Assembly: GCA_965232515.1 (NCBI GenBank)
Contig: CBDDPY010000002.1
Location: 3,392,001-3,456,000 of the forward strand
Length of the DNA: 64,000 nucleotides
Direction: 5' to 3'
Source of the DNA: Alphaproteobacteria bacterium
GTDB taxonomy: Bacteria; Pseudomonadota; Alphaproteobacteria; GCA-2731375
Shown: positions 28,638-49,416 of the stretch, piece by piece
How the letters are laid out: each line of letters starts with the position of its first letter
Numbering within the stretch: position 1 is the stretch's first letter
The notes under the pieces: generated by a model
The model's input: only the letters and a program-made list of their open reading frames with translations
Told to the model about the DNA's origin: nothing
Databases searched by the model: none
Program-made: the position numbers and the translations under genes

Positions 28638-28711
28638 CGCTCACGGCAGCGGACCTAACGGTCCGCGCCTGCGCGGGCGCGCCGGACGACCGGCGGGCCG
28701 CAGTCGCGGCC
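28638..28711 (+). repeat. Dispersed multi-hairpin repeat, copy A
   Basis: CGCTCACGGCAG-GGACC/GGTCC-...-GCCGG/CCGGC-GGCCGC/GCGGCC; second copy at 61988-62062. Confidence 0.8.
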
Positions 28712-28771
28712 TGGTATAGTTTTGTTTGGGCGCGCTACGGCGACGAAGAACGACGAGTGGGAGGAATTCGC

Positions 28772-30463: not shown

Positions 30464-30493
30464 CGCGGGCTGCCCTTCGACATTCGATGGCCG

Positions 30494-30600
30494 ATCCTTC
30501 GAGACGCGCCCTTACGGGCGCTCCTCAGGATGAGGTTTGCATTTTATATCAACGCCTTACCTCATGCTGAGGAGGTCCCGGAGGGACCGTCTCGAAGCAT
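30494..30600. repeat. REP/RIME-like inverted-pair element between convergent genes
   Basis: CTTCGAGACG...CTCCTCAGGATGAGG paired with CCTCATGCTGAGGAG...CGTCTCGAAG. Confidence 0.8.
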
Positions 30601-30613
30601 GCGATATCGCCCG

Positions 30614-34120: not shown

Positions 34121-34148
34121 GTCAGTCCGGTCTCCTGCGCCGTTTCAA

Positions 34149-34589
34149 CTAACAGGTAACAACACTGTCCGCCGGCGTCACGCCGGCCGCCGCCCGGCGC
34201 ATGATACCGGAAATCGTGCCGTAGGCCGCGGTCCAAGCGGCTTCCGTTTCCGACGTCCAGGAGTCGCCCAGCCCGCGCTTCAGCGTCCAGAGCAGCGCGG
34301 CGCCGACCGTGTCGTAGTGCGCGCCGGTCACGCCGTAGCCGACATGGCGGCGGCCCAGATCCTCGATGGTCGGCACCAGGATCTCAAGATAGTCCAGGTT
34401 CTGCACGACGTGGGCGAGCGTCGCCACCAGCTTGTCGCGCTGCGCCGCCATGTCGGTCTCGCGGAACAGATCGCGGAGATCCGGATCGATCTCGAACAGC
34501 CGGTCGTAAAACAGCATGGCCGCGGTATCGGCGATGGGGGTCACCTGGTCCCAGGTCTCGCGTACGAGGCGTTTCTGATCGGGGGTCAT
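34149..34589 (-). CDS. Single-domain globin (copy 1)
   Basis: LFYDRLFEIDP..R.LF (TyrB10, PheCD1), Q..KL (GlnE7), LGRRHVGYGV (HisF8), Y..VG.ALLWTL. Confidence 0.93.
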   Translation of the reverse strand: MTPDQKRLVRETWDQVTPIADTAAMLFYDRLFEIDPDLRDLFRETDMAAQRDKLVATLAHVVQNLDYLEILVPTIEDLGRRHVGYGVTGAHYDTVGAALLWTLKRGLGDSWTSETEAAWTAAYGTISGIMRRAAAGVTPADSVVTC

Positions 34590-34617
34590 GTCGAAGCCCT
34601 CCTCTTATCGGCTGATG

Positions 34618-34836
34618 TCAGCGTTCGGCCTGCGCCTGAGCCGGCGCGTCGAGCCAGAAAAACTGCTTCACGGCGCGTTTGAGCCGGCGGAACAGACCGC
34701 CAAACAGGTCGTGCGCGGCGCGCGAGCGTTCGACGCGGGCCCGGCGATCGCCGTCGCGCAACAGCGCATCCCATTGCGCCGGGTTAAGCGATCGGACGTC
34801 GATCTTCCCGAGATCGAACTCATCATCGGCTTGCAT
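34618..34836 (-). CDS. Small hypothetical protein (72 aa), RSP_7527-like
   Basis: AGGAGG RBS; RRARVERSRA...LF..L amphipathic helix; lies between the LysR promoter and globin 1. Confidence 0.6.
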   Translation of the reverse strand: MQADDEFDLGKIDVRSLNPAQWDALLRDGDRRARVERSRAAHDLFGGLFRRLKRAVKQFFWLDAPAQAQAER

Positions 34837-34905
34837 CCCAGATCCTCCTTCTTGGGTTGTCCGTGGCCTCGCCAGCGGATGGGGAGGATTTAGCGGTTGC
34901 CGAAC

Positions 34906-34952
34906 TTCATGAAAAATGAATAATTAAGATGATTTCGTTCTCTTGGAGAGAT
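34906..34952. promoter_or_regulatory. LysR-type T-N11-A boxes in the divergent promoter
   Basis: TTCA-N7-TGAA at 34906-34920 and TTCTC-N5-GAGAT at 34938-34952. Confidence 0.55.
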
Positions 34953-34954
34953 TT

Positions 34955-35848
34955 ATGGACCTGTCGGATCTGCGCATCTTCCGCGCCGTCGTCGAGGCCG
35001 GCGGCATCACCGCCGCCGCGCGCCAGCTGCATCGCGTGCAGTCGAACGTCACGACGCGGGTGCGACAGCTGGAAGAGAACCTGGGCGTCGAGCTGTTCAT
35101 CCGCGAGGGCAAGAAGCTGCATTTGTCACCGGCGGGTCAGGTGCTGCTCGATTATGCCGACCGGCTGCTGACGCTGGCCGAGGAGGCCCGCAACGCGGTG
35201 CAGGACCCGAGCCCGCGCGGCCTGTTTCGGCTGGGCGGCATGGAGAGCACGGCCGCGGTGCGGCTGCCGGGGCCGCTCAGCACCTATCACCAGCGCTATC
35301 CGGAGGTGGAGCTGGAATTCCGCGACAGCAACCCGGTGCAGCTCGCAACCTGGGTTTTGGCGGGCGAACTCGATGCCGCATTCGTGGCGGAGCCCGTCCC
35401 CGATGCACCGTTCGAGAAGGCGCATGCGTTCGATGAGGAACTGGTGATCGTCGCATCGGCGCAGCAACAGCCAATCGACGTGGCCGATGACACGCCGCAG
35501 ACGATCGTCGCCTTCGAAAACGGTTGTCCCTATCGCAAGCGGTTGGAGACCTGGTACGAGGGACGCGGCGATATGCCGGTGCGCACCATCGAGATCTCGT
35601 CCTATCACGTGATGCTCGGCTGCGTCGCCGCCGGCATGGGCATGTCGATGTTGCCGCGCAGCGTGCTGAGCGCCTTTCCCGGACGAGACCGTCTCAGCGT
35701 CCACGCGCTGCCGTCGGGGCAGGAACGCGCGGAAATCGTGCTGATCTGGCGCAAGGGCGCCAATTCGCCGAAGATCGCCGCCCTGCTCGATATCCTGAAA
35801 GAGAACCAGGGCGACGATAAATCCAGCCTGGCCGTGACGGCCGCGTGA
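34955..35848 (+). CDS. LysR family regulator (YneJ/PtrR-like)
   Basis: GGITAAARQLHRVQSNVTTRVRQLE, MESTAAVRLP, GCPYR. Confidence 0.93.
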   Translation: MDLSDLRIFRAVVEAGGITAAARQLHRVQSNVTTRVRQLEENLGVELFIREGKKLHLSPAGQVLLDYADRLLTLAEEARNAVQDPSPRGLFRLGGMESTAAVRLPGPLSTYHQRYPEVELEFRDSNPVQLATWVLAGELDAAFVAEPVPDAPFEKAHAFDEELVIVASAQQQPIDVADDTPQTIVAFENGCPYRKRLETWYEGRGDMPVRTIEISSYHVMLGCVAAGMGMSMLPRSVLSAFPGRDRLSVHALPSGQERAEIVLIWRKGANSPKIAALLDILKENQGDDKSSLAVTAA

Positions 35849-35849
35849 C

Positions 35850-36296
35850 TTAAGGCCGGTTGTCGTTCGACGTTTCGTAGACGGGTTCGGCCGACGCCGC
35901 GTCGCGCATGATGTCGGCAACCGTCGTGTAGGCGTCCGTCCAGGCCAATTCCGCTTCCGGTGTCCAGGCCGCGCCCAAGCCCTGCGCCAAGGTCCAAAGC
36001 AGCGCCTGGCCAACGGTGTCGTACTGCGCATCGGTGACGCCGTAGCCCACATGTCGGCGACCAAGGTCCTCGATCGCCGGCACCATCGACTCGAGGTCGT
36101 CCAGATTGTCGACGACGGCGCTGAGCGTCGCCATCAGCTTTTCGCGCTGCGCCGCCATGTCCGTGTCTTTGAACAGCGGCCGTGCGCTGGGATCGACTTC
36201 GAACAAGCGGTCATAAAACAGCCGGGCCGCCGTATCGGCGATCGGCGTCACCAGCGCCCAGGTCTCGCGCAGAATGCGTTTCTGCTCTGGCGTCAT
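35850..36296 (-). CDS. Single-domain globin (copy 2)
   Basis: Same globin motifs as copy 1; long identical blocks such as VTPIADTAA, LFYDRLFE, TDMAAQR and IEDLGRRHVGYGVT. Confidence 0.93.
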   Translation of the reverse strand: MTPEQKRILRETWALVTPIADTAARLFYDRLFEVDPSARPLFKDTDMAAQREKLMATLSAVVDNLDDLESMVPAIEDLGRRHVGYGVTDAQYDTVGQALLWTLAQGLGAAWTPEAELAWTDAYTTVADIMRDAASAEPVYETSNDNRP

Positions 36297-36459
36297 GTCG
36301 GATCACTCCATGTCTTGTGCGGTGCGTCCGCACAGGGAACGCGATCAGACGTGCACGGGTCGTGCACCAACGATGGGACGCTTCGATGGCAACCGCCCAG
36401 CACATCGACAACGCATGTTCGAGACTAAGCTTCGGCGCTCGGACGGCTTGTGAACGGCG

Positions 36460-37056
36460 TCACGCCGCCCGCGTGCAGAAATAACGGCCGTTCGACCGGT
36501 CGGCCGCGGTGGTTGTCGTGGCCTCGGCGAAGCCCGCGGCCAGAGCCTGCGCCTCGATCTCGGCCGGCCGGTAATGGCGTGCGCCGTCGGGTGGGGTTTC
36601 GTTGTAGCACAGCACCAAGCGGCCGCCGGCGGCCAGCACTCGACGGCATTCGCGCAACACGGCCGGCGTGTCGGGCCAAAAGTAGATGACGTTGACGGCA
36701 CAGACATGACTGAAGGCGCCATCCGCGAAGGGCATGACGGCGGCGTCACCCCGGTGCAGTTCCACGGCGCCGGCGTCGATGGCGCGGCGAAACCGCCGGC
36801 GGCCCGCGACGACGGCGGTGGCCGAATGTTCCAGGCCGACGATGCGCGGCGGCGCGGCCTGCGCCAGCAGGCGCTTGATCAGATCGCCGCCGCCGAAGCC
36901 GATCTCGAGTACGCGGTCGTCTGGCCTGGCCTGCAGAGTCTGCAGCGCCAGCCGGTTCATGCCGGCGTTGGACCAGTTCAGCATGTGCAGCAACAACCGG
37001 CCGCCGAAGCCGCTGGGATGGCCGAGCTGCCGGACGATACCCCGGCCCTGACTCAT
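36460..37056 (-). CDS. Class I SAM-dependent methyltransferase
   Basis: QLGHPSG, VLEIGFGGG, VNVIYFW, RVL..GG. Confidence 0.88.
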   Translation of the reverse strand: MSQGRGIVRQLGHPSGFGGRLLLHMLNWSNAGMNRLALQTLQARPDDRVLEIGFGGGDLIKRLLAQAAPPRIVGLEHSATAVVAGRRRFRRAIDAGAVELHRGDAAVMPFADGAFSHVCAVNVIYFWPDTPAVLRECRRVLAAGGRLVLCYNETPPDGARHYRPAEIEAQALAAGFAEATTTTAADRSNGRYFCTRAA

Positions 37057-37084
37057 GCCGCGAAATGGACTGAATGCGAGGCGA

Positions 37085-38053
37085 TCAGTCCAGGTGCCGC
37101 AGGTATTGCTGCACGAAGTCGACGCCGACGCGGGCGATGAAGGCGTCGGTCAGGCGCCTGGTGACGGGGCCGGGCACGCCACCGCTGTCCATCGCGACGC
37201 CGGAGACGCTGCGCACCGGGCAGATGCAGAAGCTGGTGGACGTGATGAAAGCCTCGTCGGCGTTGTAGGCATCGTAGGGCGCGATGTCGGCCTGCTCGTA
37301 CGGAATGCCGAGATCGTCGGCCAGCTCGAACACCGTGTCGCGGGTGACGCCGGCGAGCACGTAGTCGTCGCGTGGCGTGACCAGCGCGCCGTCGATCACG
37401 AAGAAGATGTTCGAGCCCATGCCTTCGGCGAAATGGCCGTTCTCGTCGAGCAGGATGGCCCAGGGATGGCGGCCGTCGCCGGCTTGGTGCTGGCGGCGGA
37501 TCTCCTCGTCGCCGAGGATCAGGTTCAGATAGTTGTGGGTCTTGGCGCGCGGCGAGAAGGCCTCGGGGCTGGCCCGGCGCACGGACGGCACCATCACGTC
37601 GATACCGTCGCGGAACAGCGGCGCACGTGGTTTGAACGGCAGCGGCGTGCATTCGACGATGACGGTCGGCCCGGTCGATTCATGGATGTCGCCGGCCGGG
37701 ATGTCGGTCCCGCGGGAGATGCGCTGCGAGACCCAGTAATCCTCGTGATCGTCGATCAGGTGCAGATTGCGCTCCAGCACGTCCAGCGTGATGTCGCGGA
37801 ACGCGTCCTTGCTCATGGGCGGCGGGATCTGCAGGTAGCGCAGGGTGCGGTAGAAACGGTCGAGATGCTCGTCGAGCTTGAACAGCTTGTGCGCGAAGGT
37901 GCGGCTGGTGTCGAAGGCGCCGTCGCCGAACTTGAAGCTGCGGTCGCGAAACGACACCACGGCGCGGCTCTCGGGCACGATCTCGCCGTTGAAGTAAGCG
38001 ACACGTTCGTTCGCGCGGCTCTCGGATGCAGTGTTCGTCGACGCGGCCATCAC
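37085..38053 (-). CDS. Aminotransferase class IV (BCAT/D-amino acid transaminase-like)
   Basis: DRSFKFGDGAFD, HLDRF, AKTHNY (PLP Lys), EG.GSNIF, LAGVTR, ADEAFITST. Confidence 0.92.
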   Translation of the reverse strand: MMAASTNTASESRANERVAYFNGEIVPESRAVVSFRDRSFKFGDGAFDTSRTFAHKLFKLDEHLDRFYRTLRYLQIPPPMSKDAFRDITLDVLERNLHLIDDHEDYWVSQRISRGTDIPAGDIHESTGPTVIVECTPLPFKPRAPLFRDGIDVMVPSVRRASPEAFSPRAKTHNYLNLILGDEEIRRQHQAGDGRHPWAILLDENGHFAEGMGSNIFFVIDGALVTPRDDYVLAGVTRDTVFELADDLGIPYEQADIAPYDAYNADEAFITSTSFCICPVRSVSGVAMDSGGVPGPVTRRLTDAFIARVGVDFVQQYLRHLD

Positions 38054-38184
38054 CAGTCCTTTCCCGTTGTCGTGTCAGCCTGACACGACGCGTGAAACCG
38101 CCGCAAGGGCACAACGCCAACGGGAACGAAACAATTGTTGGCGGTGGCCGGCCGGCACCTCTAAACCAGACGGCATGACTGTTC

Positions 38185-39072
38185 ATGCCGGCAGTATTGA
38201 GCGCGATGAGTGACGCCGCGTGGCTGTTGGCGCTCGGGTCTGCCGGGTTTTTCGGGCTGGCCCTGGTGCTGACGCAGTTCGGATTGCGCCATCTGCCGCC
38301 GCTCGCCGGCACCATGGTCAGCATTCCGACGTCGGCATTGCTGTTCTGGGCCGCGGCGCCGTGGCTGTTGGATACGGCCGGCTGGCGGGTCGATGCCGCC
38401 GCCGTTTTCGCGGCCGTCGGACTGCTGTTCCCGGCGGCGGTGACGCTGCTGACCTTCGAGGCCAACCGGCGCATGGGCCCGAACGTCGCCGGCGCGCTCG
38501 GCAACCTGGCGCCCTTGTTCGCCGTGCTGTTCGCGGTGATCGCGCTCGGCGAACGGCCGGGACCGCTGCAGCTCGCCGGCATCGCCGCCATCGTCCTGGC
38601 CGTCACCGCGCTGTCGGCCGACCGGACCTGGCTGGCGGCGCGCTGGCCGATCTGGGCGGTCGCCCTGCCGCTCGCCGCCGCCGGCATCCGCGGCGCCATC
38701 CAGCCGACGGTCAAGCTCGGCCTGGCGCTGTGGCCATGCGCGTTTGCCGCCACGCTGATCGGCTACACCATCTCGGCCATGGTCATCGCCGGCGCGGTGA
38801 CGTTGCGCGCCAACGGCCGAACGCCGCAACTGGGCCGCGCCGGCGCCGCCTGGTTCGCCGCCGTGGGTCTGAGTAATGGCCTTGCCGTGCTGACCATGTA
38901 TGCCGCGCTGTCCCGCGGCTCCGTGACGCTGGTCTCGCCGCTGGTCGCGACCTACCCGCTCGTGACGCTGGCGCTGAGCGCCCTGCTCCTGCACGCGGCC
39001 CGCTTCAATCTGCAACTTTGCCTCGGCGTCGCCGTCACGGTCGCCGGTGTCGCGCTCCTGCTCGCCGGCTGA
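38185..39072 (+). CDS. EamA/DMT family transporter
   Basis: About ten TM helices in two repeats; GERPG and VSPL..TYPL; start may be 38206. Confidence 0.87.
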   Translation: MPAVLSAMSDAAWLLALGSAGFFGLALVLTQFGLRHLPPLAGTMVSIPTSALLFWAAAPWLLDTAGWRVDAAAVFAAVGLLFPAAVTLLTFEANRRMGPNVAGALGNLAPLFAVLFAVIALGERPGPLQLAGIAAIVLAVTALSADRTWLAARWPIWAVALPLAAAGIRGAIQPTVKLGLALWPCAFAATLIGYTISAMVIAGAVTLRANGRTPQLGRAGAAWFAAVGLSNGLAVLTMYAALSRGSVTLVSPLVATYPLVTLALSALLLHAARFNLQLCLGVAVTVAGVALLLAG

Positions 39073-39177
39073 GCTTGAGGTTGGCGTGCATCGGCGTTGC
39101 GCCGATCCGTTGCTTGTGCTGAAAACCCGGTGCGTAATCTGCAATCCCGAAGCCAGGGCGTTTGTCGCGCATTGCCG

Positions 39178-39801
39178 ATGGTCGAGTTGCGAACCTTTCA
39201 GGACCGGGACCTGGACAGTCTCTATGCCATATCGCTCGCCACCGGCCATATCGGCGGAGACGCCAGCGCGCTCTACGCGGACGGCCGAATGATGGGGCAC
39301 ATCTACTCGGCACCCTACGCGAAGCTGCGCCCGCACACCTGTTTCGTGGCCGAGGACGCGGCCGGCGTCGCCGGATTCATCGTCGGCGCCGTTGACACGC
39401 GGGCGTTCGAAGCCGAGCTGGAACGCGCTTGGTGGCCGCATCTGCGCGCCATCTATCCGGATCCGAGCGGCACGCCGCCATCGATCCGGACCGCCGACGA
39501 GCGCCGCTTTTTCATGATCCATCACCCGCGACGCACGCCCGATGAGATCACGGCGGCGTTCCCCGCGCATCTGCACATGAACCTGCTGCCGCGATTGCAG
39601 GGCCAGGGCGTCGGCCCGTCATTGCTCGAATTGTGGTTCGCAGAGGCGCGGGAACTCGGCGCGACCGGCGTGCATGTCGGATCGAACGCGCACAACCACG
39701 GTGCGGTGCGGTTCTGGCAGAAATGTGGCTTCGAACGCCTGCCGTCGCTGGCCTCGGATGGCAGGACGGCATGGCTCGGGCGACACCTCGATCAAGCCTG
39801 A
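39178..39801 (+). CDS. GNAT family N-acetyltransferase
   Basis: YSAPY, PAHLHMNLLPRLQGQGVG, N..A..FW...GF. Confidence 0.88.
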   Translation: MVELRTFQDRDLDSLYAISLATGHIGGDASALYADGRMMGHIYSAPYAKLRPHTCFVAEDAAGVAGFIVGAVDTRAFEAELERAWWPHLRAIYPDPSGTPPSIRTADERRFFMIHHPRRTPDEITAAFPAHLHMNLLPRLQGQGVGPSLLELWFAEARELGATGVHVGSNAHNHGAVRFWQKCGFERLPSLASDGRTAWLGRHLDQA

Positions 39802-39942
39802 ACGGTTAACCGAACGATCCGCTGACGTTTTGCAGGTCTGTCGCGTCGGCATGATCGTGATCGTCGCCCTGTAACTGACAAACTGGCAGACTGTTGGTTT
39901 GGAAATACATGCCTGCCAGCAGGGATCGTGGGGAGATCAGCG

Positions 39943-40791
39943 ATGTTCGAGGTCAATGCGGAGAAGAAATCGTTCACCACTTCGGACGGCGCGCGGCTCA
40001 GCTACCTGGAGGCGGGGTCGGGACAGCCTTTCGTCATGATCCCGGGCTGGTCGCAGACAGCCGAACAGTGGCATCACCAGGTCAATCACTTCTCGAACAC
40101 GCACCGGGTGCTGGCGCTGGACATGCGCGGGCATGGCGACAGCGACAAGCCCGACCACGGCTATCGCGTCTACCGGCTGGCGAAGGATGTGCGCGACGTC
40201 ATCGAGGGCCTTGACCTACACGATGTGGTGCTGATGGGGCATTCGATGGGCTGCTCGGTGATCTGGGCGCTCTACGACCTCTATGGCGCCGACCGGATCG
40301 CCAAGATCGTCTTCGTCGACGAGCCGCCCTCGCTCTCGGACAACCCGACGCTCGACGACCAGACGCGGCCGCAGGCGGGCGCCATCTTCACGCCCGAGGC
40401 CACGTTCGAGACCGCGATCGCGCTCGCGAACGATGCAAACGGCGAGGTCACGACCGGGTTCGTCACCGGCATGTTCACGCCGGACTGCCCGAAAGACATC
40501 GTCGAGGGCAGCATCGCGCTGAACCTGAAATTCCCGCGCGACAAGGCGGCGGCGCTGGTGGTCGACCATGTCCACAACGACTGGCGCGACGTGATGGGCC
40601 GGATCGCGGTGCCGGCGCTCTGCATCGGCGGCCGGATCAGCCTGGTGCCCTGGACGTCCGTGGTCTGGCAGGCCGAACAGATGCCTCACGGCGAGGTCGA
40701 GATCTTCGAAGCCGACGAAGGCGGCGCGCACTTCATGTTCATGGAGAACCCGGAAAAATTTGATGCCCGCGTCGCCGAATTTCTGGGCTGA
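39943..40791 (+). CDS. Alpha/beta hydrolase (non-heme haloperoxidase-like)
   Basis: PGWSQ, D.RGHG.S, GHSMG nucleophile elbow, AHFMF.ENP. Confidence 0.92.
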   Translation: MFEVNAEKKSFTTSDGARLSYLEAGSGQPFVMIPGWSQTAEQWHHQVNHFSNTHRVLALDMRGHGDSDKPDHGYRVYRLAKDVRDVIEGLDLHDVVLMGHSMGCSVIWALYDLYGADRIAKIVFVDEPPSLSDNPTLDDQTRPQAGAIFTPEATFETAIALANDANGEVTTGFVTGMFTPDCPKDIVEGSIALNLKFPRDKAAALVVDHVHNDWRDVMGRIAVPALCIGGRISLVPWTSVVWQAEQMPHGEVEIFEADEGGAHFMFMENPEKFDARVAEFLG

Positions 40792-40951
40792 CGGCCACAG
40801 ATTTGTTGGCCAGCAAGCGGCCAGGCGCCCCTTGCCGGCCACGGCCTGAACCGATCTCAACCCGAATTAACGCATTTGGGCGCACATCCAATGCGATAAA
40901 TGCTCTAGACTGTTGCCATTGAGGGCTCAGCGATTGGCCAGGAGTCGGGCT

Positions 40952-41503
40952 ATGTTCGGGCTTGCGAACTACATAATGATCGCCCTCTTCGTCCTCGTCG
41001 CGGTTGGTCTGCCGACCCCTCCGGCTTGGGCGCAAGACGCCAAGCAATCCAAGCCATTGTTCAGCGTGGACGGATTTGACTACCAGTTCATCCCTCGCGG
41101 GCGAATACACATGAATGTCTGCCAGCAAACGAGCTGTGTTCCCGGGTCCCGGGTCAGCTACACGCTCTATGCGCCGGAACCCAATCCCAGCTTCGAGCAG
41201 TACAAACTTTCACAGGACCGAGTTGCAACACAACTCAGGGCCCGCGCGCCGCAGGGTACGAAGTTTGTATTTGGTACGCCGGAGCAAACGCGGGACGACG
41301 TCTTCACGACCTTCACCAACACAAGGGAGATTCACAATCCCAACGGCACCAAGATGTTCACGAAGTCAACATTGCTGCATGCCGAGGCAGCGACGATCTC
41401 TCTCGTGAGTTCGTCGGAAGATAAAGAAGCGGTCGAAACAAACCGCGCGCTGTTCATGCTCCAACTCATGATCTTGACCGAGCTTGCAAACAAGCAGAAT
41501 TAG
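40952..41503 (+). CDS. Exported hypothetical protein
   Basis: AGGAG RBS; signal peptide ending AWA; AT-richer codons. Confidence 0.7.
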   Translation: MFGLANYIMIALFVLVAVGLPTPPAWAQDAKQSKPLFSVDGFDYQFIPRGRIHMNVCQQTSCVPGSRVSYTLYAPEPNPSFEQYKLSQDRVATQLRARAPQGTKFVFGTPEQTRDDVFTTFTNTREIHNPNGTKMFTKSTLLHAEAATISLVSSSEDKEAVETNRALFMLQLMILTELANKQN

Positions 41504-41527
41504 CGCTGGCACCGTCATGCCAGTTGC

Positions 41528-42313
41528 TCAATCCCTGTCCATGCCGCCGGACGCGTTGAGGCGTTCGGCGGTGATGTAGTCGGGGGCGTCGAGGGCGAGC
41601 CAGCAGACGGCGTCAGCCATCTCGTCCGGCGTCATGCGACGGCCGAGGGGGATGCGGGCAGTGCGCTCGGCCTTGAAGGCGTCGAGGTCGTCGCGGCCCT
41701 CGAGTTCGGCCATCAGGCGTTCGGTACGGTCCTGCAATTCGGTGTCCATCATGCCAGGGCCGATGCTGTTGACCTGGATGTTGTGTGGCGCGAGCGCGAC
41801 GGCGGCCGTGCGGGTGAGCGAATCCACCGCGGCCTTGCTGGCGGCATAGGCCGCGTAGGTCGGGAGCGCCATGCGCGAGGCCGCCGAGGTGACGTTGACG
41901 ATGCGGCCCCTGCCCTGCGCCCGCATCTGCGCGCCGGCCGCGGCGATCGCCAGCGCCACGCCCCGCACGTTGACGAGCAGGCTGCGCTCCCAGGCGGCCG
42001 GCGTCATCTCGAGAAACGCCTCGATCGTGGCGTAAGCCGCTGCGTTGACCAGCACGTCGAGCCGGCCAAATTGCGCCACGGTCGCCGTGACCATGGCCGC
42101 CGGTCCATCGGCGGAACCGAGATCGTAGGTCAGCGCCTGTGCGTCCGTGGCGGCCGAGCGGCAGCGCGCGGCGACCGACTGGGCGCCATCCGAATCCACG
42201 TCCGCGATGGCGATGTTCAGCCCGCGCGCCGCCAGCGCGACGGCGACCGCCGCGCCGAAGCCGTTGGCGCCGCCCGTGACGAGCGCCGTTTGTTTTGTCG
42301 CCTGATCGGTCAT
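41528..42313 (-). CDS. SDR family oxidoreductase
   Basis: TGGANGFG, YAASK, VN.IGPG...T. Confidence 0.92.
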   Translation of the reverse strand: MTDQATKQTALVTGGANGFGAAVAVALAARGLNIAIADVDSDGAQSVAARCRSAATDAQALTYDLGSADGPAAMVTATVAQFGRLDVLVNAAAYATIEAFLEMTPAAWERSLLVNVRGVALAIAAAGAQMRAQGRGRIVNVTSAASRMALPTYAAYAASKAAVDSLTRTAAVALAPHNIQVNSIGPGMMDTELQDRTERLMAELEGRDDLDAFKAERTARIPLGRRMTPDEMADAVCWLALDAPDYITAERLNASGGMDRD

Positions 42314-42446
42314 GGCTTCCTCCGCTGCCGACTGCTGTCGCACAAGAGGATGTTACTTGGTCGACGGCGTTCGCGCCGCCTAGGCTGACAGACGTCAAGT
42401 CCAGTGGCGTTTATCGGAAAACAAGAAGACAGCGGAGGACGTCATC

Positions 42447-43211
42447 ATGACCGCACCTGTACGCCTTTTGCACCACCCGACATCACAGCCCTGTCGGGCC
42501 GTGCATCAGTTCCTGCTGGAGGTTGGCATTCCGTTCGAGCAGGAGGTCGTCAACATCCTGGACGGCAGCAACGAGGCGCAAGACTTCAAGGACAACTACA
42601 ACCCGACGGGGCAGATCCCGATCCTCTGCGACGGCGACTTCGTCGTCTGGGAGAGCGCGGCGATCGCCTTCTACCTGAACGAAAAATACGACGCGCCGGC
42701 GCATTGGTTCGGCGCCACGATGCAACAGCGCGCCCTGATCCAGCAGTATCTGCACTGGCATTCGACGTCGCTCCGCCGCGGCGCCGGGGCGTTTTTCTAT
42801 TCGCACTTCGCGGAATGCATCTGGGGCAAGCACGACTATTCCCGGGAGATCGAGAAAGGCCGGCACGTACTCTACGAGTCGATGGGAATCCTGGACCGCT
42901 GGCTTGGCCACAGCAACTACGTCTGCGGCGACGAGATCAGCTTCGCCGACCTGCAAGGCTATCATGAGTTCGTGTCGCACGCGGCCGGCGAAATCATTCC
43001 CGAGGCGGAATGGCGCAAGCATCCCAACATCAAACGCTGGTTCGACGCCATCTCCGAACGCCCGCATTCGGCTGTTGTTAGCGAGATGATCATGGAGGTC
43101 GGCCGGATGCGGCTTGCGGGCGAGCTCATTCCCATGACGCGCAAGACGTCTCTCGCGAAGGGGACGGAGATTGCCGGCAGCGGGACGACCGGAATCCCGT
43201 ATCTGAACTAG
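42447..43211 (+). CDS. Theta-class glutathione S-transferase, dichloromethane dehalogenase (DcmA)-like
   Basis: HPTSQPCR, YNPTGQIPIL, VWES.AI, YVCGDEISFADL, HEFVSH.AG.IIP, ERPH and C-terminal RKT...KGTE...GIPYLN. Confidence 0.88.
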   Translation: MTAPVRLLHHPTSQPCRAVHQFLLEVGIPFEQEVVNILDGSNEAQDFKDNYNPTGQIPILCDGDFVVWESAAIAFYLNEKYDAPAHWFGATMQQRALIQQYLHWHSTSLRRGAGAFFYSHFAECIWGKHDYSREIEKGRHVLYESMGILDRWLGHSNYVCGDEISFADLQGYHEFVSHAAGEIIPEAEWRKHPNIKRWFDAISERPHSAVVSEMIMEVGRMRLAGELIPMTRKTSLAKGTEIAGSGTTGIPYLN

Positions 43212-43319
43212 CGTCTGCCCGAACATTTGCGTTTGTCGCGCCGGCATCGATTTGCCGGACGTCGCGCCATGCGGGATTATAGGCAGGCGATAAAGCAGCC
43301 AAACGGGGGCAAAGCGGCG

Positions 43320-44297
43320 ATGAAACGCAAACACGCGAGCGGCAACGCCGGCAGGCGATCGAAATCGGACCAGCAAATCGCCATTGCGGCCTACGAACAT
43401 CGCCGTGGCGAGGGCAAAGGCGACCAACGGTTTCCGTCGGATCGGGAGATCTCGCTGGATGCCTATGAGCAGCGGCACAGCGAGGCGTCGCGGCCGAAGC
43501 CGGCGCGGCTGAAGGGTAAGATCTATAAGCGCGAACTGACGCGTCTGCAGATCGAGCTGGTGAAGCTGCAGGAATGGATCAAAGACCAGGGTCTGAAGGT
43601 GGTCGTGGTCTTCGAGGGCCGCGACGCGGCCGGCAAGGGCGGCACGATCAAGCGCATCCTGCAGAGCCTGAACCCGCGCATCTGCGACGTGGTGGCCCTG
43701 GGCACGCCGACCGACCGCGAAAAGACGCAATGGTACTTCCAGCGCTATGTGGCGCATCTGCCGGCGGCGGGCCAGATGGTGCTGTTCGACCGCTCCTGGT
43801 ACAACCGCGCCGGCGTCGAGCGCGTCATGGGTTTCTGCACCGAGGAGGAGTATCGCGACTTCCTGCGCTCGGCGCCGGAGTTCGAGCGCATGCTGGTGCG
43901 CTCGGGCATTGTCCTGATCAAATACTGGTTCTCGGTCAGCGACGAAGAGCAGGAACGCCGCTTCAGCGACCGCATCAAAACGCCGACCAAACGCTGGAAG
44001 CTGAGCCCCATGGACCTGGAGTCGCGCAAACGCTGGGTCGAGTATTCGAAGGCCAAGGACGAGATGTTCCAGCACACCGATATCAAGCAGGCGCCCTGGT
44101 ATGTGGTCGAATCCGACGACAAACGGCGGGCGCGGCTGAACTGTATCCGTCACCTGTTGAGCGTCATTCCCTATAAGGATCTGACGCCGGAGCCGGTCAA
44201 GCTGCCGCGGCGGCAACGGGCCGGCGGCTACGTGCGGCCGCCGATGAGCGAGCAGACCATCATCCCCGACCACTATCCGGCGGACGGCGGCCGATGA
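43320..44297 (+). CDS. ppk2: Polyphosphate kinase 2
   Basis: FEGRDAAGKGG Walker A, WYFQRY, FDRSWYNRAGVE, WKLSPMD. Confidence 0.96.
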   Translation: MKRKHASGNAGRRSKSDQQIAIAAYEHRRGEGKGDQRFPSDREISLDAYEQRHSEASRPKPARLKGKIYKRELTRLQIELVKLQEWIKDQGLKVVVVFEGRDAAGKGGTIKRILQSLNPRICDVVALGTPTDREKTQWYFQRYVAHLPAAGQMVLFDRSWYNRAGVERVMGFCTEEEYRDFLRSAPEFERMLVRSGIVLIKYWFSVSDEEQERRFSDRIKTPTKRWKLSPMDLESRKRWVEYSKAKDEMFQHTDIKQAPWYVVESDDKRRARLNCIRHLLSVIPYKDLTPEPVKLPRRQRAGGYVRPPMSEQTIIPDHYPADGGR

Positions 44298-44698
44298 GCC
44301 GGATCGGGGTAAGGGCGCTGGCCGACGCGGCGGCGGCCGAGATCGAGACCTGGACGCTGGACGAAGCGCTGGCCCGGCATGGCGACGACGACATTGTGTT
44401 CGTCGATGTGCGCGACATCCGCGAGGTCTGGCGCGACGGCACCATTGCCGGGGCCTATCATGCGCCGCGCGACATGCTGGAGTTCTGGGTCGACCCCGAC
44501 AGCCCGTACGCCAAGGAGATCTTCCAGAGCGGCAAACGCTTCGCCTTCTTCTGCGCCTCGGGCGACGGCATGCGCTCGGCGCTGTCGGCCAAGGCCGTGC
44601 AGGACATGGGCCTGAAACCTGTCTGCCGCATTCATGGCGGCTTTGCCGGCTGGCGCGGCGCCGGCGGTCCGGTCGAACAGCGCAAGCCGAAAAGCTGA
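44294..44698 (+). CDS. Rhodanese-like protein
   Basis: VDVRDIRE, MLEFWVDPDSPY, FCASG..MRSAL, GGFAGW; ATGA overlap with ppk2. Confidence 0.88.
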   Translation: MSRIGVRALADAAAAEIETWTLDEALARHGDDDIVFVDVRDIREVWRDGTIAGAYHAPRDMLEFWVDPDSPYAKEIFQSGKRFAFFCASGDGMRSALSAKAVQDMGLKPVCRIHGGFAGWRGAGGPVEQRKPKS

Positions 44699-44789
44699 AT
44701 TCCGATAGCGCGCATCGGCCGCGCTTAATGCTAATATTCCGGACAAGTGTTTGGGGCGTGGGGCACGCAAGACCAACCGGGAGACGACA

Positions 44790-46031
44790 ATGCGTAAGAC
44801 GACTAGTTCCCTGACCAACCTTTGGATCACGACGGCGGTCGGCGCCGCCGTGCTGGCGCTGGCGGCGGCCGGACCCGCGGCGGCGCAGGACGTGAAGATC
44901 GGCACGCTGAACGGCATGACCGGCGGCCTCGCCGCCTATGCGCCGCCGATCATCGACGGCCAGAAGCTGGCCGTGACGCATGTGAACGAGCAGGGCGGGA
45001 TCCTGGGCGGCCGCAAGCTGGTGCTGGTGACCGGCGACACCCAGAGCAATCCGACCGGCGCCGTCGACGCGGCGCAGAAGCTGGTTTCCGTCGACGGCGT
45101 GGCCGGCATCGTCGGCGCGCTGGCCAGCAGCGCCACCATCTCGTCGGCGACCAGCGTCACCGTGCCGGCCGGCATTCCGCAGATCTCGCCGGCCTCGACC
45201 TCGCCGGCGATCACGACGCTGGACGACAAGGACCTGCTCTACCGCACCACCGTCAGCGACGCCTATCAGGGCGTGGTGCTGGCCCGCGTCGTGCACAAGC
45301 GCGGCATCAAGCGGGTGGCGATGACGTATATCAACAACGATTACGGCAAGGGGTTGGCCGAGGCTTTCCGCGAGGCCTACACCAAGCTCGGCGGCACCAT
45401 CACCGGCGATCAGCCGCACGAGGAGAACAAGGCCTCCTACCGGGCCGAGCTGGCGACGCTGGCGTCGGGCGATCCCGAGGGGCTGGTGACCATCGCCTAC
45501 CCCGACAGCGGCGGCAAGATCATCATGCGGCAGTCGCTGGAGAACGGCTTCTTCGATCAGTTCATCATGACCGACGGCATGCGCCAGACCGAAGTGGTCG
45601 AAGAGATCGGCGCCGACAACCTGAAGGGCTCGTTCGGCACCGGCGCCGAGGCGCCGGGCGACACGTCTGCCTCGATGGCGTTCGAGAAGGCCTATTCGGC
45701 GGCCTTCGAGACCACCAAGGAGAAGTTCTATATCCGCGAAGCCTATGACGCGGCGTTCATGATGGCGCTCGCCATCGAGAAGGCCGGCTCCACCGACGGC
45801 ATGAAGATCCGCGACGCCCTGCGGCAGGTCTGCTGCGCGCCGGGCGAAAAGGTCGAGCCGGGCCAGTGGGAGAAGGCCCGCAAGCTGATCGCCGACGGCA
45901 AGGACATCGACTATGTCGGCGCCGCCGGCGACCAGGAGTTCGACGGCTCAGGCGACGTCGCCGGCACCATCGGCCACTGGGAAGTCCAGGCCAACGGCGA
46001 CCTGAAGGTGCTGGAGATTTATTCGGACTGA
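44790..46031 (+). CDS. Branched-chain amino acid-type ABC substrate-binding protein
   Basis: Signal peptide; ISPASTSP.IT, RT..SDAYQG, NNDYG.GL, AYDA, DY.GAAG. Confidence 0.92.
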   Translation: MRKTTSSLTNLWITTAVGAAVLALAAAGPAAAQDVKIGTLNGMTGGLAAYAPPIIDGQKLAVTHVNEQGGILGGRKLVLVTGDTQSNPTGAVDAAQKLVSVDGVAGIVGALASSATISSATSVTVPAGIPQISPASTSPAITTLDDKDLLYRTTVSDAYQGVVLARVVHKRGIKRVAMTYINNDYGKGLAEAFREAYTKLGGTITGDQPHEENKASYRAELATLASGDPEGLVTIAYPDSGGKIIMRQSLENGFFDQFIMTDGMRQTEVVEEIGADNLKGSFGTGAEAPGDTSASMAFEKAYSAAFETTKEKFYIREAYDAAFMMALAIEKAGSTDGMKIRDALRQVCCAPGEKVEPGQWEKARKLIADGKDIDYVGAAGDQEFDGSGDVAGTIGHWEVQANGDLKVLEIYSD

Positions 46032-46070
46032 CCCCATGTAACGACCCTCTCCCTGTTTGTTCGTAGGGTC

Positions 46071-47291
46071 ATGCGTATGTGTTCTTTGTTCAGGGAGGGG
46101 GTCGTCTATCTCGCCGTTGTTCTCTTGCTCGTCGCGACCCAGATAGGGGTGGTGAGCGAGTCGGCGGCGGACGAACCCCCAATCAGCGAAAGCGCGGCGG
46201 TCGAGCGTCTGCTGACCGCCGAGAGCATCGATCCGGACTGGTTCGATCCGGCGTTTCTGGCGCAGATACCGCTGGCGCAGATCGAGGCGATCATTGCCTC
46301 GCTGAATCAACAATATGGCGCCTTCGTTTCAATTGGCATGGAGCGGGGCGGCGGCACGCTGCGGCTGGCCGGCGCGGAGATGCCGGTGCGCGCAGCGTTG
46401 AACGCGCAAGGCCAGTTCATCGGGTTGTTCTTCGGCGTACCGTCGTTGACGGATGCCGGCCCCTCTGAGCTGATCGCGCAGTTCGTCGAGCTCGCCGACG
46501 ACGTATCGGCCTTTGTCCGGCGCGGCGACACGGTGCTGGGCGAACGTGAGCCCGACCGGCCGCTCGCCGTCGGCTCCGCCTTCAAGCTGGCGATCCTGAA
46601 GGCCTATGAGGACCGGGTCGCGGCCGGCGACCTCGCGCGCGATCGCGTTGTCGCCCTGCGGCACACCTGGCGCTCGATCCCGTCGGGCATGCTGCAGGAC
46701 TGGCCCGCGGGCGCGCCAGTGACGCTGGAAACGCTCGCCGGTCTGATGATCGCGATCAGCGACAACACCGCCACCGACGCGATGATCGGCATCCTCGGGC
46801 GCGATGCCGTCGAGGCGGTGTCGCCGCGCAACCGGCCGTTCCTGACCACGCGGGAAGCCGCCCTGATCAAGACCGACGCCCTGCCCGACCTGCGGCGACG
46901 CTACCAAGACGCAGACATGGACGGGCGCCGGCGCCTGCTGGCCGAACTCGCCGCGCGCGATCTCGGCGAGACCAAGGATTTCGGCGCGACGCCGACCGTC
47001 GGGATCGAATGGTTCTTCACGGCGCGCGAGCTCTGCGGCCTGATCGACAATCTGTTCGCGGCGCCGGCCGTGACGATCAATCCCGGGCCGATCGACGCCG
47101 CCGACTGGGTCCGCGTCGCCTACAAGGGCGGCTCGGAGCTCGGCGTGCTCAACTTCACCGCCGCCGCCGAAGGCGCCGACGGCGAGCGCGTCTGCGCCGC
47201 GGTCACGCTCAACACCGACCGCGCCATCGACGAACGGCGCGCCACGGTCCTTTTCGCCAGCCTGTTCGAGGCGCTGCGGTCCGCGGATTAA
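46071..47291 (+). CDS. Exported serine hydrolase with class A beta-lactamase-like fold and an N-terminal extension (Cpe/LpqF-like)
   Basis: GSAFKL (SxxK), ISDNTATD (SDN), YKGGS (KTG-like). Confidence 0.85.
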   Translation: MRMCSLFREGVVYLAVVLLLVATQIGVVSESAADEPPISESAAVERLLTAESIDPDWFDPAFLAQIPLAQIEAIIASLNQQYGAFVSIGMERGGGTLRLAGAEMPVRAALNAQGQFIGLFFGVPSLTDAGPSELIAQFVELADDVSAFVRRGDTVLGEREPDRPLAVGSAFKLAILKAYEDRVAAGDLARDRVVALRHTWRSIPSGMLQDWPAGAPVTLETLAGLMIAISDNTATDAMIGILGRDAVEAVSPRNRPFLTTREAALIKTDALPDLRRRYQDADMDGRRRLLAELAARDLGETKDFGATPTVGIEWFFTARELCGLIDNLFAAPAVTINPGPIDAADWVRVAYKGGSELGVLNFTAAAEGADGERVCAAVTLNTDRAIDERRATVLFASLFEALRSAD

Positions 47292-47359: not shown

Positions 47360-48332
47360 AGCGATCTGCCGAAGGCCGATCGCCGTCATCCAGGGGGATC
47401 GGTTCGGGCGGGCGCTCGGCGAGGATGCCGCGGCTGAAGCGTTGCAGGATGATCTGCAGAGCGAGGCCGATCAGAAAGACACGGATATAGGCCGAGCGCA
47501 GGGCCCAGTCGCTGGGAAGCTGGCGGGTGACGAGCTCGGTCAGCGACCAGATCGCCCAGATCAGCATCGGCCCGAGGATGGCGCCGCGGTTGTTGCCGCT
47601 GCCGCCGGCGATCAGCATGACCCAGACCAGGAAGGTGACCAGCAGCGGCTCGGTCGATTCCGGTCCGATGAAGCGAATCGAATGCGCCATCAGCGCGCCG
47701 CCGAGGCCCATGATCATGGAGCCGAGCACGAACGCCTCGAGCCGGCGGGCCATGATGTTCTTGCCGGCCGCGCGGGCCGACAGCTCGTTCTCGCGGATCG
47801 CCCGCATGACCCGACCCCAGGGCGAGTTCAGGCCGCGCTGCATGGCGACGTAAATGACGGCGACGATGGCCAGCACCATGAGCAGGAAGGCGAGGTTGTT
47901 CTGGAAGGGCGGCAGGCTCTCGAACGGGCGCGGAATGCCGGGAATGCCGCGCGGGCCGTTGGTCAGCCAGTCCTCGTTCTTGACGATCAGCCGCAGGATT
48001 TCGGCGATGCCGATGGTGGCGATCGCCAGATAGTCGCTGCGCAGCGTCAGGGTCAGCCAGCCGATGAAGGCGGCGACCACGCCCGCGGTCAGCATCGCCG
48101 CGACCAGGCCGACCGGCACCGGCAGCGCGAAGCCGCCGAGATAGTCGGCATGCGCCGGCGTGGTCAGGATCGCGGATGTATAGGCGCCGACGGCGAAGAA
48201 GCCGGCGATGCCGGCGTTGAACAGGCCGGTAAAGCCCCATTGCACGTTGAGGCCGAGACACATCACCGCGTAGATGCCGCCGATGGTCAGCAGGCTGACG
48301 GGATAGGCGAGAAAGGTCGCGAGATCGGCCAT
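47358..48332 (-). CDS. livM: Branched-chain amino acid ABC permease
   Basis: GLNVQWGFTGLFN.G, LRSDYLAIAT, SPWGRVMRAIRENE, GGSGNN.GA. Confidence 0.88.
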   Translation of the reverse strand: MADLATFLAYPVSLLTIGGIYAVMCLGLNVQWGFTGLFNAGIAGFFAVGAYTSAILTTPAHADYLGGFALPVPVGLVAAMLTAGVVAAFIGWLTLTLRSDYLAIATIGIAEILRLIVKNEDWLTNGPRGIPGIPRPFESLPPFQNNLAFLLMVLAIVAVIYVAMQRGLNSPWGRVMRAIRENELSARAAGKNIMARRLEAFVLGSMIMGLGGALMAHSIRFIGPESTEPLLVTFLVWVMLIAGGSGNNRGAILGPMLIWAIWSLTELVTRQLPSDWALRSAYIRVFLIGLALQIILQRFSRGILAERPPEPIPLDDGDRPSADR

Positions 48333-49219
48333 CAATAAACCCTTCCCTTGAACAGGCCGCTCGGCCGCCAGAGCAGCATCGCCACCATGATGGCAAACGC
48401 GACGGCCGACTTGTAGGTCGGATCCAAGAGCGGCGTGGTGCCGACCCAGGGATAGGCCGACAGCTCCTCGGCGATGCCGATGACGAGGCCGCCGGCGATG
48501 GCGCCATAAGGCTTGCCGATGCCGCCCAGGATCGCCGCCGCGAACACCGGCAGCAGCATGTTCCAGCCGATCAGCGTGGTGATCTGGGTGTCCATGCCGA
48601 GGAAGACGCCGGCCGCGCCCGCGAGGCAGCCGCCCAGCACCCAAGTCCAGGCGACGATGCGCTCGGTGTTGATGCCGGTGATGCGGGCGAGATCGGGATC
48701 GTCGCTGAGCGCGCGCATGGCCTTGCCGGTCTTGGTCCGGGTCAGGAAGAGATGCAAGGCGACAACGAGCGCGATCGACAGCAGCACGATCCAGATATGC
48801 CGCTCGGCGATGCGCAGGCCATCGAACACGATTGGCTTGCGAAAGCCCTTTTCGTAGACATGGCTGTGCGGGCCCCAGACGAACTGAATGAACGCGCGCA
48901 GCATGAGCGCAACGCCGAAGGACGCGACCAGCACGATGATCGTCGGCCGGTCGCGGAGCGGCCTGTAGAACAGCCGGTCGATCAGGATCGCCATCAGCAC
49001 GACGCCCGCCATGGCGACCGGCAGCGCGGCGTAGACGGTGAAGCCGAGGCCGACGACCAGCGGCAGCGCGACGTAGGCGCCCAGCGTCATCATGTCGCCG
49101 TGGGCGAAATGGGCGAAGCGCAGGATGCCGAAGATCAGCGACACGCCGATGGCGCCCAGCGCATAGATGCTGCCGAGGACGATGCCGGGGATCAGGTAGA
49201 AGTTGATGAATTCGAGCAA
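48332..49219 (-). CDS. livH: Branched-chain amino acid ABC permease
   Basis: GSIYALGAIG, FAHGD, TKTGKAMRA, GGIG.P.GA, RPSGLF. Confidence 0.88.
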   Translation of the reverse strand: MLEFINFYLIPGIVLGSIYALGAIGVSLIFGILRFAHFAHGDMMTLGAYVALPLVVGLGFTVYAALPVAMAGVVLMAILIDRLFYRPLRDRPTIIVLVASFGVALMLRAFIQFVWGPHSHVYEKGFRKPIVFDGLRIAERHIWIVLLSIALVVALHLFLTRTKTGKAMRALSDDPDLARITGINTERIVAWTWVLGGCLAGAAGVFLGMDTQITTLIGWNMLLPVFAAAILGGIGKPYGAIAGGLVIGIAEELSAYPWVGTTPLLDPTYKSAVAFAIMVAMLLWRPSGLFKGRVY

Positions 49220-49269
49220 GGGGGTGGATCCTTATCCTGCTCGAGGTGTTTGCGATAGCGACGTCAGAT

Positions 49270-49397
49270 AGCCCTCACCCCAACCCTCTCCCGCAAGCGG
49301 GAGAGGGGGCCGCTGCCGCTGCTGTTTGTTTCCCCTCTCCCGCCTGCGGGAGAGGGAGGGACCCGCGCGACGGTAGTCGCGTGGGAGGGTGAGGGCT
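49270..49397. repeat. CCCTCTCCC-type intergenic palindromic element
   Basis: AGCCCTCACCC ... GGGTGAGGGCT termini enclosing two CCCTCTCCC/GGGAGAGGG hairpins. Confidence 0.8.
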
Positions 49398-49416
49398 GGT
49401 ATTTGTGCTCGCACCA

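Follow-up and report, generated by a model that had tools for sequence, protein, structure and literature searches.

A DcmA-like glutathione transferase in an ordinary chromosomal setting of an alphaproteobacterium belongs to a sister clade of the characterised dichloromethane dehalogenases

The dichloromethane dehalogenase DcmA is usually described as a near-identical gene on islands rich in insertion sequences (IS), carried by few enrichment isolates. How, then, should a well-conserved DcmA relative that stands alone in an ordinary chromosomal setting be understood? Such a gene is found in a 64,000-nucleotide stretch of an Alphaproteobacteria bacterium (GenBank assembly GCA_965232515.1, contig CBDDPY010000002.1, positions 3,392,001 to 3,456,000 of the forward strand), which is called the window below, and it encodes a glutathione transferase (GST) of 254 amino acids (P0001). 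A preliminary description, made from the sequence alone, had proposed an orphan DcmA-like GST outside any dcm island, forming a divergent and possibly ancestral branch. Its homology to DcmA and its placement in a separate clade, here called clade C, can be regarded as nearly certain, and the following features of the gene are used throughout.

42447..43211, + strand: coding sequence of the DcmA-like GST, 254 amino acids, clade C, long-tail subtype
42483..42485, + strand: codon of the predicted catalytic Ser13 (SQPCR motif), which aligns with Ser11 of human GSTT2
42753..42824, + strand: segment of residues 103-126 (helices 92-107 and 109-126), with 8 of the 17 clade-discriminating positions and the invariant Arg110
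43116..43208, + strand: C-terminal tail, residues 224-254 (RKTSLAKGTE, GIPYLN), a family-specific extension that aligns to the DcmA tail

The enzyme of strain DM4 ('type A', Swiss-Prot P21161, here P0301) was retrieved by querying with the first 160 residues of the window protein for longer proteins, and its 288-residue cluster at 90% identity holds P21161 (DCMA_METED) together with the enzymes of Hyphomicrobium GJ21, H. denitrificans, MC8b and Ancylobacter dichloromethanicus. Using BLASTP, residues 5-254 of the window protein align with residues 14-270 of DM4 DcmA, with 134/258 identities (52%) and an E-value of 5e-96. The blocks quoted in the preliminary description, namely RLLHHPTSQPCR (residues 6-17), YNPTGQIPILCDGDFVVWES (51-70), YVCGDEISFADL (158-169), HEFVSHAAGEIIP (173-185), SERPH (203-207) and the tail RKTSLAKGTE...GIPYLN (232-254), are all colinear in this alignment, tail included, as had been claimed. 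Both proteins have the serine motif SQPCR, the blocks YNPTGQxPIL and VSHxAG, and the tail R-K-T-x3-KGTE...GIPYLN, but the DM4 enzyme is longer (288 against 254 residues), the window protein being devoid of its N-terminal 9 residues, of a 4-residue insertion after residue 127 and of its last 18 residues. The DcmA of Methylophilus leisingeri DM11 (P0324, 267 residues, 'type B'), recovered with a locus protein as query, shares 48% identity with the window protein and is likewise colinear, tail included, while the two dehalogenases are 59% identical to each other. The match is much too strong to be due to chance, and the homology claim is solid.

Besides DcmA, the protein has the features of theta-class GSTs: GST_N and GST_C exceed their Pfam cut-offs, and the N-terminal serine, Pro58 and the E-S motif at residues 69-70 are present. 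Human GSTT1, a theta enzyme, acts on dichloromethane. The best solved relatives by sequence are human GSTT2 (E 1.2e-27) and GSTT1 (E 2.5e-24), and the same two proteins have the closest folds to the AlphaFold model of the window protein (template-modelling scores, TM, of 0.80 and 0.75), a model with a mean predicted local distance difference test score (pLDDT) of 95.5 and a predicted TM score (pTM) of 0.92; no DcmA structure is in the copy of the Protein Data Bank (PDB) that was searched. In the model, residues 92-126 form two long helices (92-107 and 109-126), followed towards the C-terminus by a tail (224-254) in coil with no regular secondary structure, whose block pLDDT means of 90, 80 and 79 suggest that it is probably packed rather than disordered. 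The human enzymes GSTT2-2 and GSTT1-1 (PDB 1LJR, 4MPF/4MPG, 2C3N/2C3Q) have in common with the window protein the catalytic serine and the arginine equivalent to R110, but reach just 26-29% identity in the structural alignment, and the DcmA-like tail motif finds no aligned counterpart in them, as the sequence alignments stop at residues 180-199.

Ser13 is invariant in all 59 rows of the alignment (A2), 13 outgroup GSTs included, as are P15, P58, E69, A72 and R110, the latter aligned with the arginine in the 'CIRG' of human GSTT2. The equivalents of Ser13 and R110 are established catalytic residues of theta GSTs and DcmA. The conservation bears on the idea that the gene encodes a non-catalytic protein with a GST fold, for example an FtsZ-binding protein like FzlA or a regulatory one. 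Indeed, FzlA (NF050814) is the best match in NCBIfam, but its 62.7 bits fall far under the 300-bit equivalog cut-off and the identity was rejected, no NCBIfam model attaining its cut-off for this protein. Since the serine, Pro58, the E69-S70 motif and Arg110 are all conserved in a protein 52% identical to a characterised enzyme, a non-catalytic role is very improbable. The window protein is most likely an active Ser-type theta-class GST of the DcmA-like superfamily.

The family is larger than the word 'orphan' suggests. A search of a 5.8-billion-protein collection gives 220 matches to the window protein and, among the matches listed, at least 119 clusters (90% identity) besides it are 66-80% identical, 246-275 residues long and mostly unnamed; one of them, from a metagenome-assembled genome (MAG) and in the same clade (P0073), is labelled 'dichloromethane dehalogenase' by its depositor, an automatic name. 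A HMMER scan of 1.84 billion representatives gives just 18 proteins below 1e-30, and its nearest full-length matches outside the family are approximately 40% identical, with alignments that end at residues 207-213, ahead of the tail. A scan with strict patterns from a DcmA-led alignment, covering one genome for each of 185,579 species and leaving the window's genome out, yields 119 pattern matches and at least 80 confirmed loci. Authentic DcmA (group A) accounts for 2 loci, in Ancylobacter dichloromethanicus and Hyphomicrobium GJ21 (97-99% to DcmA). Group B comprises 47 loci, 58-68% identical to DM4 DcmA (73% in a truncated match, L084) and 47-55% to the window protein, mostly in MAGs of Binatia, Alpha- and Gammaproteobacteria, Myxococcota, Thermodesulfobacteriota and others. 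Group C, the kind found in the window, comprises 30 loci, 63-80% identical to the window protein and 46-56% to DcmA; the sample of gene contexts used below has 31 C loci. The remaining locus (L088) is an unrelated GST with 28% identity. The preliminary description was right that no dcm genes stand beside the gene, but the gene is not an isolated orphan.

Group C occurs in the cultured Roseovarius nitratireducens, R. ramblicola and Albidovulum sediminis and in the cyanobacterium Vacuolonema iberomarrocanum, and its MAGs are labelled Sandaracinaceae, Planctomycetota, SAR324, Verrucomicrobiae, Nitrosomonas, Methylococcales, Woeseiaceae and Piscirickettsiaceae, so that the records of the clade carry labels of at least six phyla. 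No match to the window protein is present in the plasmid collection (tblastn, E <= 1e-20), and a scan of metagenome contigs with this protein alone gives 39 pattern matches and a single confirmed locus, an unrelated GST of 28% identity. Among 40 relatives of the organism (1 of the same genus, 23 of the same family and 16 of the same class), none carries a clade-C gene. In one same-family genome, G010, there is instead a gene of group B (L090, C3:454479-455246), 70% identical to P0121, 62% to DM4 DcmA and 52% to the window protein, and both branches are thus found within one bacterial family. The tree of DcmA-like genes is out of step with taxonomy. The clade-C proteins of a Planctomycetota MAG (L071) and a Woeseiaceae MAG of Gammaproteobacteria (L073) are near-identical, with end branches of 0.042 and 0.035, implying a very recent transfer or mis-binning.

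Of the loci examined, 29 of 30 in C and 43 of 43 in B have the SQPCR motif, and R[KR][TS]SLAKGT is found in the tail of all 27 full-length C proteins, nine of which have GIPY. Some family members are truncated or interrupted: L061 encodes 123 residues, L065 encodes 176 with SQPYR for SQPCR, and only parts of the gene are found in L084, L085 and L087. Pseudogenes or MAG assembly errors may explain these cases.

Phylogenetic placement was obtained by maximum likelihood, with a quick tree of 87 rows and a careful tree of 57 rows (LG+C20+F+G4), which agree. All DcmA-like proteins form one clade apart from the theta-like outgroups (support 100/99), so that the window protein does not group with generic GSTs, the outcome that had been named beforehand as telling against the proposal. 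Clade C is supported at 90/91, is monophyletic in 89% of the bootstrap trees and is sister to A+B (100/99, branch 0.62). DM11 DcmA lies in subclade B1 (100/98), beside L051 (100/97), and DM4 DcmA lies in A, which joins B2 (96/89); the characterised enzymes consequently span the root of A+B and clade C sits just outside their bracket. Group B, from uncultured bacteria, shares the superclade with the window protein but falls within that bracket. A tree constrained to hold the window protein with A+B loses 13.05 log-likelihood units (lnL), with an approximately unbiased p-value (p-AU) of 0.039, a weak test, as the group was named after the tree had been seen. As to the 'divergent, possibly ancestral branch', ancestry does not follow, because a sister position gives no direction and the long outgroup branches make the root, and with it any ancestral status of C, insecure.

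Can the gene context tell what the clade does? The dcmA gene is described in a dcmR-dcmA-dcmB-dcmC cluster, often flanked by IS elements (PMC7760279, PMC2680597). Queries for DcmR (a helix-turn-helix and a MEDS domain), DcmB and DcmC were taken from the Hyphomicrobium GJ21 locus, where a DDE transposase adjoins. At L009 and L010, dcmR, dcmB, dcmC and IS elements adjoin dcmA, whereas none of them is beside the window GST. Of the 47 group B loci, 16 have a DcmR-like gene upstream, 19 have a DcmB-like gene downstream and two (L038, L051) have a DcmC-like gene, all in canonical positions, and since many of these contigs are short the absences are soft. The group B loci (L011-L053, L083-L085, L087) look like true dcm-type clusters outside enrichment isolates, and DM11 DcmA falls among them.

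In group C, tblastn finds neither DcmB nor DcmC within 8 kb of the loci, and DcmR-like genes are found in 4 of 30, intact in L072 and L086 (MEDS/DcmR-type by Pfam), split in L076 and partial in L074. The best functional clue comes from adhC, whose product, a class III alcohol dehydrogenase, would act on S-(hydroxymethyl)glutathione, the compound that a DcmA-type reaction yields. When all loci were searched within 8 kb by tblastn with the AdhC of the window's genome, adhC was found directly beside the GST in 4 of 31 C loci, against none of the 49 A and B loci, and the four genes score 566-639 bits against the TIGR02818 equivalog cut-off of 543.95. Three of these four loci also carry the DcmR-type regulator: the order is dcmR-GST-adhC in L072, dcmR(partial)-GST-adhC in L074 and, in L076, dcmR on the opposite strand followed by adhC-GST, with an IS21 transposase nearby. 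In the fourth, L055, the GST is 72% identical to the window protein, which places it among the closer relatives; the order there is adhC-fghA-GST head to tail followed by a nitrilase-family gene, with fghA scoring 408 bits against a cut-off of 281.7. Taken together, the linkage to adhC, fghA and dcmR in these loci points to a reaction giving a formaldehyde-glutathione adduct, as dihalomethane dehalogenation does.

Genes for nitrile metabolism adjoin several C GSTs, with a CN_hydrolase/nitrilase in L055 (8834-9748) and nitrile hydratase subunits in L056 (6493-7155) and L057 (6455-7764), and a dichloromethane-induced putative nitrilase is described in strains MC8b and DM4, close to their dcm genes (PMC7760279); this may be coincidence. 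Clustering of neighbours over the 80 loci reveals no family common to more than 6 of 31 C loci. The short-chain dehydrogenase/reductase (SDR) was considered as a conserved partner and rejected, as its positions among C loci are scattered and probably due to chance.

For DcmA, the reaction is described as proceeding through S-chloromethylglutathione to formaldehyde and HCl (PMC4271186). From the homology, the conserved catalytic residues, the theta fold, the clade position and the gene context observed here, we infer a substrate, a product and a physiological role for the window protein, and it seems somewhat probable that this enzyme removes halogen from dihalomethanes, or from similar halomethyl electrophiles, and so yields the formaldehyde-glutathione adduct. 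Ser13 and Arg110 would activate glutathione, and the thiolate would displace halide from CH2X2 (X = Cl, Br, I) or from a similar one-carbon halomethyl electrophile. The resulting S-(halomethyl)glutathione would hydrolyse to S-(hydroxymethyl)glutathione, which may be oxidised by the unlinked AdhC or dissociate to formaldehyde and glutathione. In the window's organism the GST would be a solo, unregulated accessory gene, for which detoxification or scavenging is likelier than growth on dichloromethane.

Several observations, at the level of the protein, of the clade and of the genome, weigh against dihalomethane dehalogenation. The characterised enzymes do not bracket clade C, so that function is not transferable to it on that basis. 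In addition, while 66 positions are at least 90% conserved in the 28 rows of C and likewise in the 50 rows of A+B, among them S13, Q14, P15, C16, R17, R110 and the tail residues R232, T234, K238, G239 and T240, a further 17 positions separate C from A+B, 8 of them in residues 103-126 and 4 in the tail. Those of the segment are, in C and A+B respectively, H103/Q, H105/Y, R111/L, A113/G, F117/H, Y118/W, E123/P and W126/Y; its consensus reads HWHSTxLRRGAGAFFY..ECIWG in C versus QWYAYTLRLGGGAFHW..P.IYG in A+B, and that of the tail [ST]SLAKGT versus TAVLKGT. The DcmA signature segment Q-W-Y-A-Y-T-L-R-L-G-G-G-A-F-H-W, whose discriminating positions are at least 90% conserved in A+B, is replaced by HWHSTSLRRGAGAFFY in the window protein. 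By analogy with the theta-class literature the discriminating residues may line the electrophile pocket, and the differences, including R111 for Leu, F117 for His and Y118 for Trp, would agree with an altered one.

These differences suit another explanation, that of an active theta-type GST with its pocket remodelled for some other small electrophile (other alkyl halides, epoxides, sulfate esters, hydroperoxides or an endogenous metabolite), dihalomethanes being at best side substrates. Besides the position of the clade outside the DM4-DM11 clade and the concentration of discriminating positions in the tail and in a segment that also holds the residue aligned with the 'CIRG' arginine, the neighbourhoods fit it. 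In 27 of 31 C loci there is no adhC within 8 kb and the surroundings are heterogeneous, with nitrile hydratase or nitrilase, luciferase-like monooxygenases and SDRs among them, and the window's locus is flanked by just an SDR and PPK2. However, the identity to both dehalogenases is high and nearly equal to their mutual identity, the family-specific tail motif is conserved, and the linkage of adhC, fghA and DcmR in four C loci suggests a formaldehyde-level product and a dichloromethane-type sensor. A different electrophile is therefore the less probable of the two, though a serious possibility.

The linkage itself calls for caution. The adhC-linked loci are not independent, L072 and L074 being sisters in the tree and L076 near both; the window's locus is outside this set and has no informative neighbours; and adhC could serve some other role related to formaldehyde or nitrosoglutathione. 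The preliminary description had called for a genome search for dcmR and formaldehyde oxidation genes. In the window's genome, DcmR and DcmC have no tblastn match, a family search finds no MEDS domain, no fghA scores above its cut-off and no Fae is present; AdhC (G000 C2:870916-872016) exceeds its cut-off but is unlinked to the GST, and there are 16 matches to the GFA domain. The genome does not look like that of a dedicated methylotroph, and the claim that the gene lies outside any dcm island is confirmed; this copy of the gene adds no contextual support for the function.

Such findings also bear on a stronger version of the proposal, in which the gene is a true DcmA orthologue enabling growth on dichloromethane as carbon source. 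The 52% identity, the AdhC in the genome and the automatic name of the same-clade MAG protein speak for it. On the other hand, the protein falls outside A+B by the test above, the genome offers no DcmR, DcmC, Fae or fghA and its sole DcmB-like gene lies far off amid unrelated genes, and dcmA alone is reported not to give strain AM1 growth on dichloromethane (PMC2680597), so that this role is improbable. Regarding membership in DcmA (EC 4.5.1.3), the window protein has the theta fold with the H-P-x-S-Q-P-C-R serine and the C-terminal extension R-[KR]-T-x3-K-G-T-E with G-I-P-Y; it lies outside the DM4-DM11 clade, is devoid of the signature segment and has no dcm gene cluster. Consequently, it should best be filed as 'DcmA-like, clade C' and not as DcmA.

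The one DcmB-like gene of the genome, 60% identical and 2.5 Mb from the GST, was considered as a dcm partner and rejected, because its neighbours are an adenylate-cyclase-domain gene and a DASS transporter gene, with no GST beside it. This solo gene (G000 C2:5924135-5925088; L089 8022-9092), 60% identical to GJ21 DcmB, belongs to no Pfam family and has an IS3-type integrase approximately 2 kb away. Two weaker DcmB paralogues (39% and 33%) are found elsewhere in the genome; DcmB homologues thus exist without dcmA.

The immediate surroundings of the gene and its junctions are as follows.

42434..42439, + strand: Shine-Dalgarno-like GGAGGA, read in the sequence, 7 nt 5' of the GST ATG
41528-42343, - strand: SDR gene, upstream flank of the GST
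43227..44297, + strand: ppk2, PPK2 family (E 1.7e-108), 15 nt 3' of the GST on the same strand
43212..43236, no strand: synteny breakpoint, the same-genus genome aligning from 43237 on, 26 nt past the GST stop, and not before
37824..43236, no strand: segment of approximately 5.4 kb not found in the same-genus genome, with the rest of the aminotransferase gene, EamA, GNAT, alpha/beta hydrolase, the 196-residue hypothetical protein, SDR and GST

The position between an SDR gene on the minus strand and ppk2 on the plus strand, with codons like those of the host, agrees with what had been stated, the third-position GC content (GC3) of 0.827 being at the 36th percentile of 3545 long open reading frames (ORFs) and the codon score at the 28th. 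Genes for a class IV aminotransferase, an EamA transporter, a GNAT protein, an alpha/beta hydrolase, a 196-residue protein without a family and the SDR precede the GST in this order, and genes for PPK2, a rhodanese, an ABC substrate-binding protein and a beta-lactamase-family protein follow it. The ORF of the 196-residue protein (40913-41503, + strand), with no Pfam family, has a GC content of 0.558 against 0.655 for the genome and a codon score at the 0.5th percentile, being the most atypical gene in the GST neighbourhood. No tRNA is found in the window. A promoter scan around the GST reveals no sigma-70-like promoter in 42250-43450, and a terminator scan gives three matches, all weak and all within the GST ORF, with no terminator-like site between GST and ppk2; the two genes are possibly co-transcribed.

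Four RNA-Seq runs of one study contain contigs 95-99.5% identical to the SDR, to the GST (42628-43211) and to ppk2, leaving window positions 42336-42543 uncovered, and two of them (X7 record 16 and X10 record 1) span the GST/ppk2 junction at 43211/43227. They stem from a close relative, and the GST-ppk2 arrangement therefore occurs in at least one other strain. As a sign of GST expression they are a hint only, since DNA carry-over could also supply them. Over the 12 nt at 43068-43079 (GST residues ~208-211), contigs X5 and X7 disagree with the window at 8 positions, while elsewhere they are 95-99% identical.

Comparison with the sole congener (G001, 81% complete in 700 contigs) shows that the GST forms the right-hand end of the segment of approximately 5.4 kb. 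To its right, window positions 43237-47281 and 47377-49407 match C643:1876-7998 of the congener at 86-93% DNA identity; to its left, contig C148 matches the window up to 37823, where that contig ends. Window positions 37866-43236 have no match in this 81% complete assembly and are to be read as not found, rather than absent. At the position equivalent to the GST, upstream of ppk2, the congener (L111, C643:1-1875) has a DDE_Tnp_1-associated transposase fragment and two pairs of FitA-like ribbon-helix-helix (RHH) antitoxin and PIN toxin. Thus, the earlier statement that no mobile element is nearby stands for the window's own genome, where none of the 32 ORFs scanned at 26.7-59.2 kb belongs to a transposase or integrase family, but it does not extend to the relative, in which mobile-type genes sit at the synteny break. 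The junction at the GST varies within the genus, and this fits a segment acquired, or lost in the relative, long enough ago for its codons to match those of the host.

Two other features were noticed in the comparison with the congener. A LysR regulator, a globin and a methyltransferase occupy window positions 34097-37080 (approximately 3 kb), whereas on C148 the blocks to either side are separated by only some 90 nt; this is a second strain-specific indel close by. Two short stretches, 30485-30609 (approximately 125 nt) and 28634-28714 (approximately 80 nt), are found again, at 75-96% identity, on dozens of the congener's contigs and are dispersed intergenic repeats, possibly similar to repetitive extragenic palindromic (REP) elements or miniature inverted-repeat transposable elements (MITEs).

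DcmA is described as the sole aerobic dichloromethane-degrading system characterised at the sequence level, with DM11 and MC8b as the most divergent known DcmA among a handful of degraders (PMC7760279); one Binatota genome is scored as dcmA-bearing (PMC8262859), and marine dcmR homologues are placed beside anaerobic mec cassettes (bioRxiv 10.1101/2021.08.30.458270). DcmA is said to prefer dibromomethane kinetically, and a review of 2021 remarks that dichloromethane dehalogenases are widespread and divergent and may have evolved on natural dibromomethane (PMC8913905), so that the idea is not new in outline. The literature searched, which extended to sources other than subscription journals, gave no paper that delimits or tests sister family C or names a dibromomethane-degradation gene. 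Around the window's gene, a well-conserved DcmA relative alone in an ordinary chromosomal setting, two larger groups emerge: B, with dcmR-A-B-like clusters in uncultured bacteria, and C, sometimes wired to adhC, fghA and a DcmR-type sensor. It is a tentative and rather doubtful extension of these results that clade C supplies the missing bacterial catalysts by which natural dihalomethanes (CH2Br2, CH2I2, CH2ClI, CH2Cl2) are turned over in the sea and elsewhere in the environment, as an old, horizontally mobile family in which some members are wired to a DcmR-type sensor and the glutathione-dependent formaldehyde pathway and of which DcmA is a specialised offshoot. If clade C does dehalogenate dihalomethanes, it would offer a marker gene for the biological sinks of ozone-relevant halomethanes, both natural and man-made, and the origin of a pollutant-degrading enzyme would be explained.

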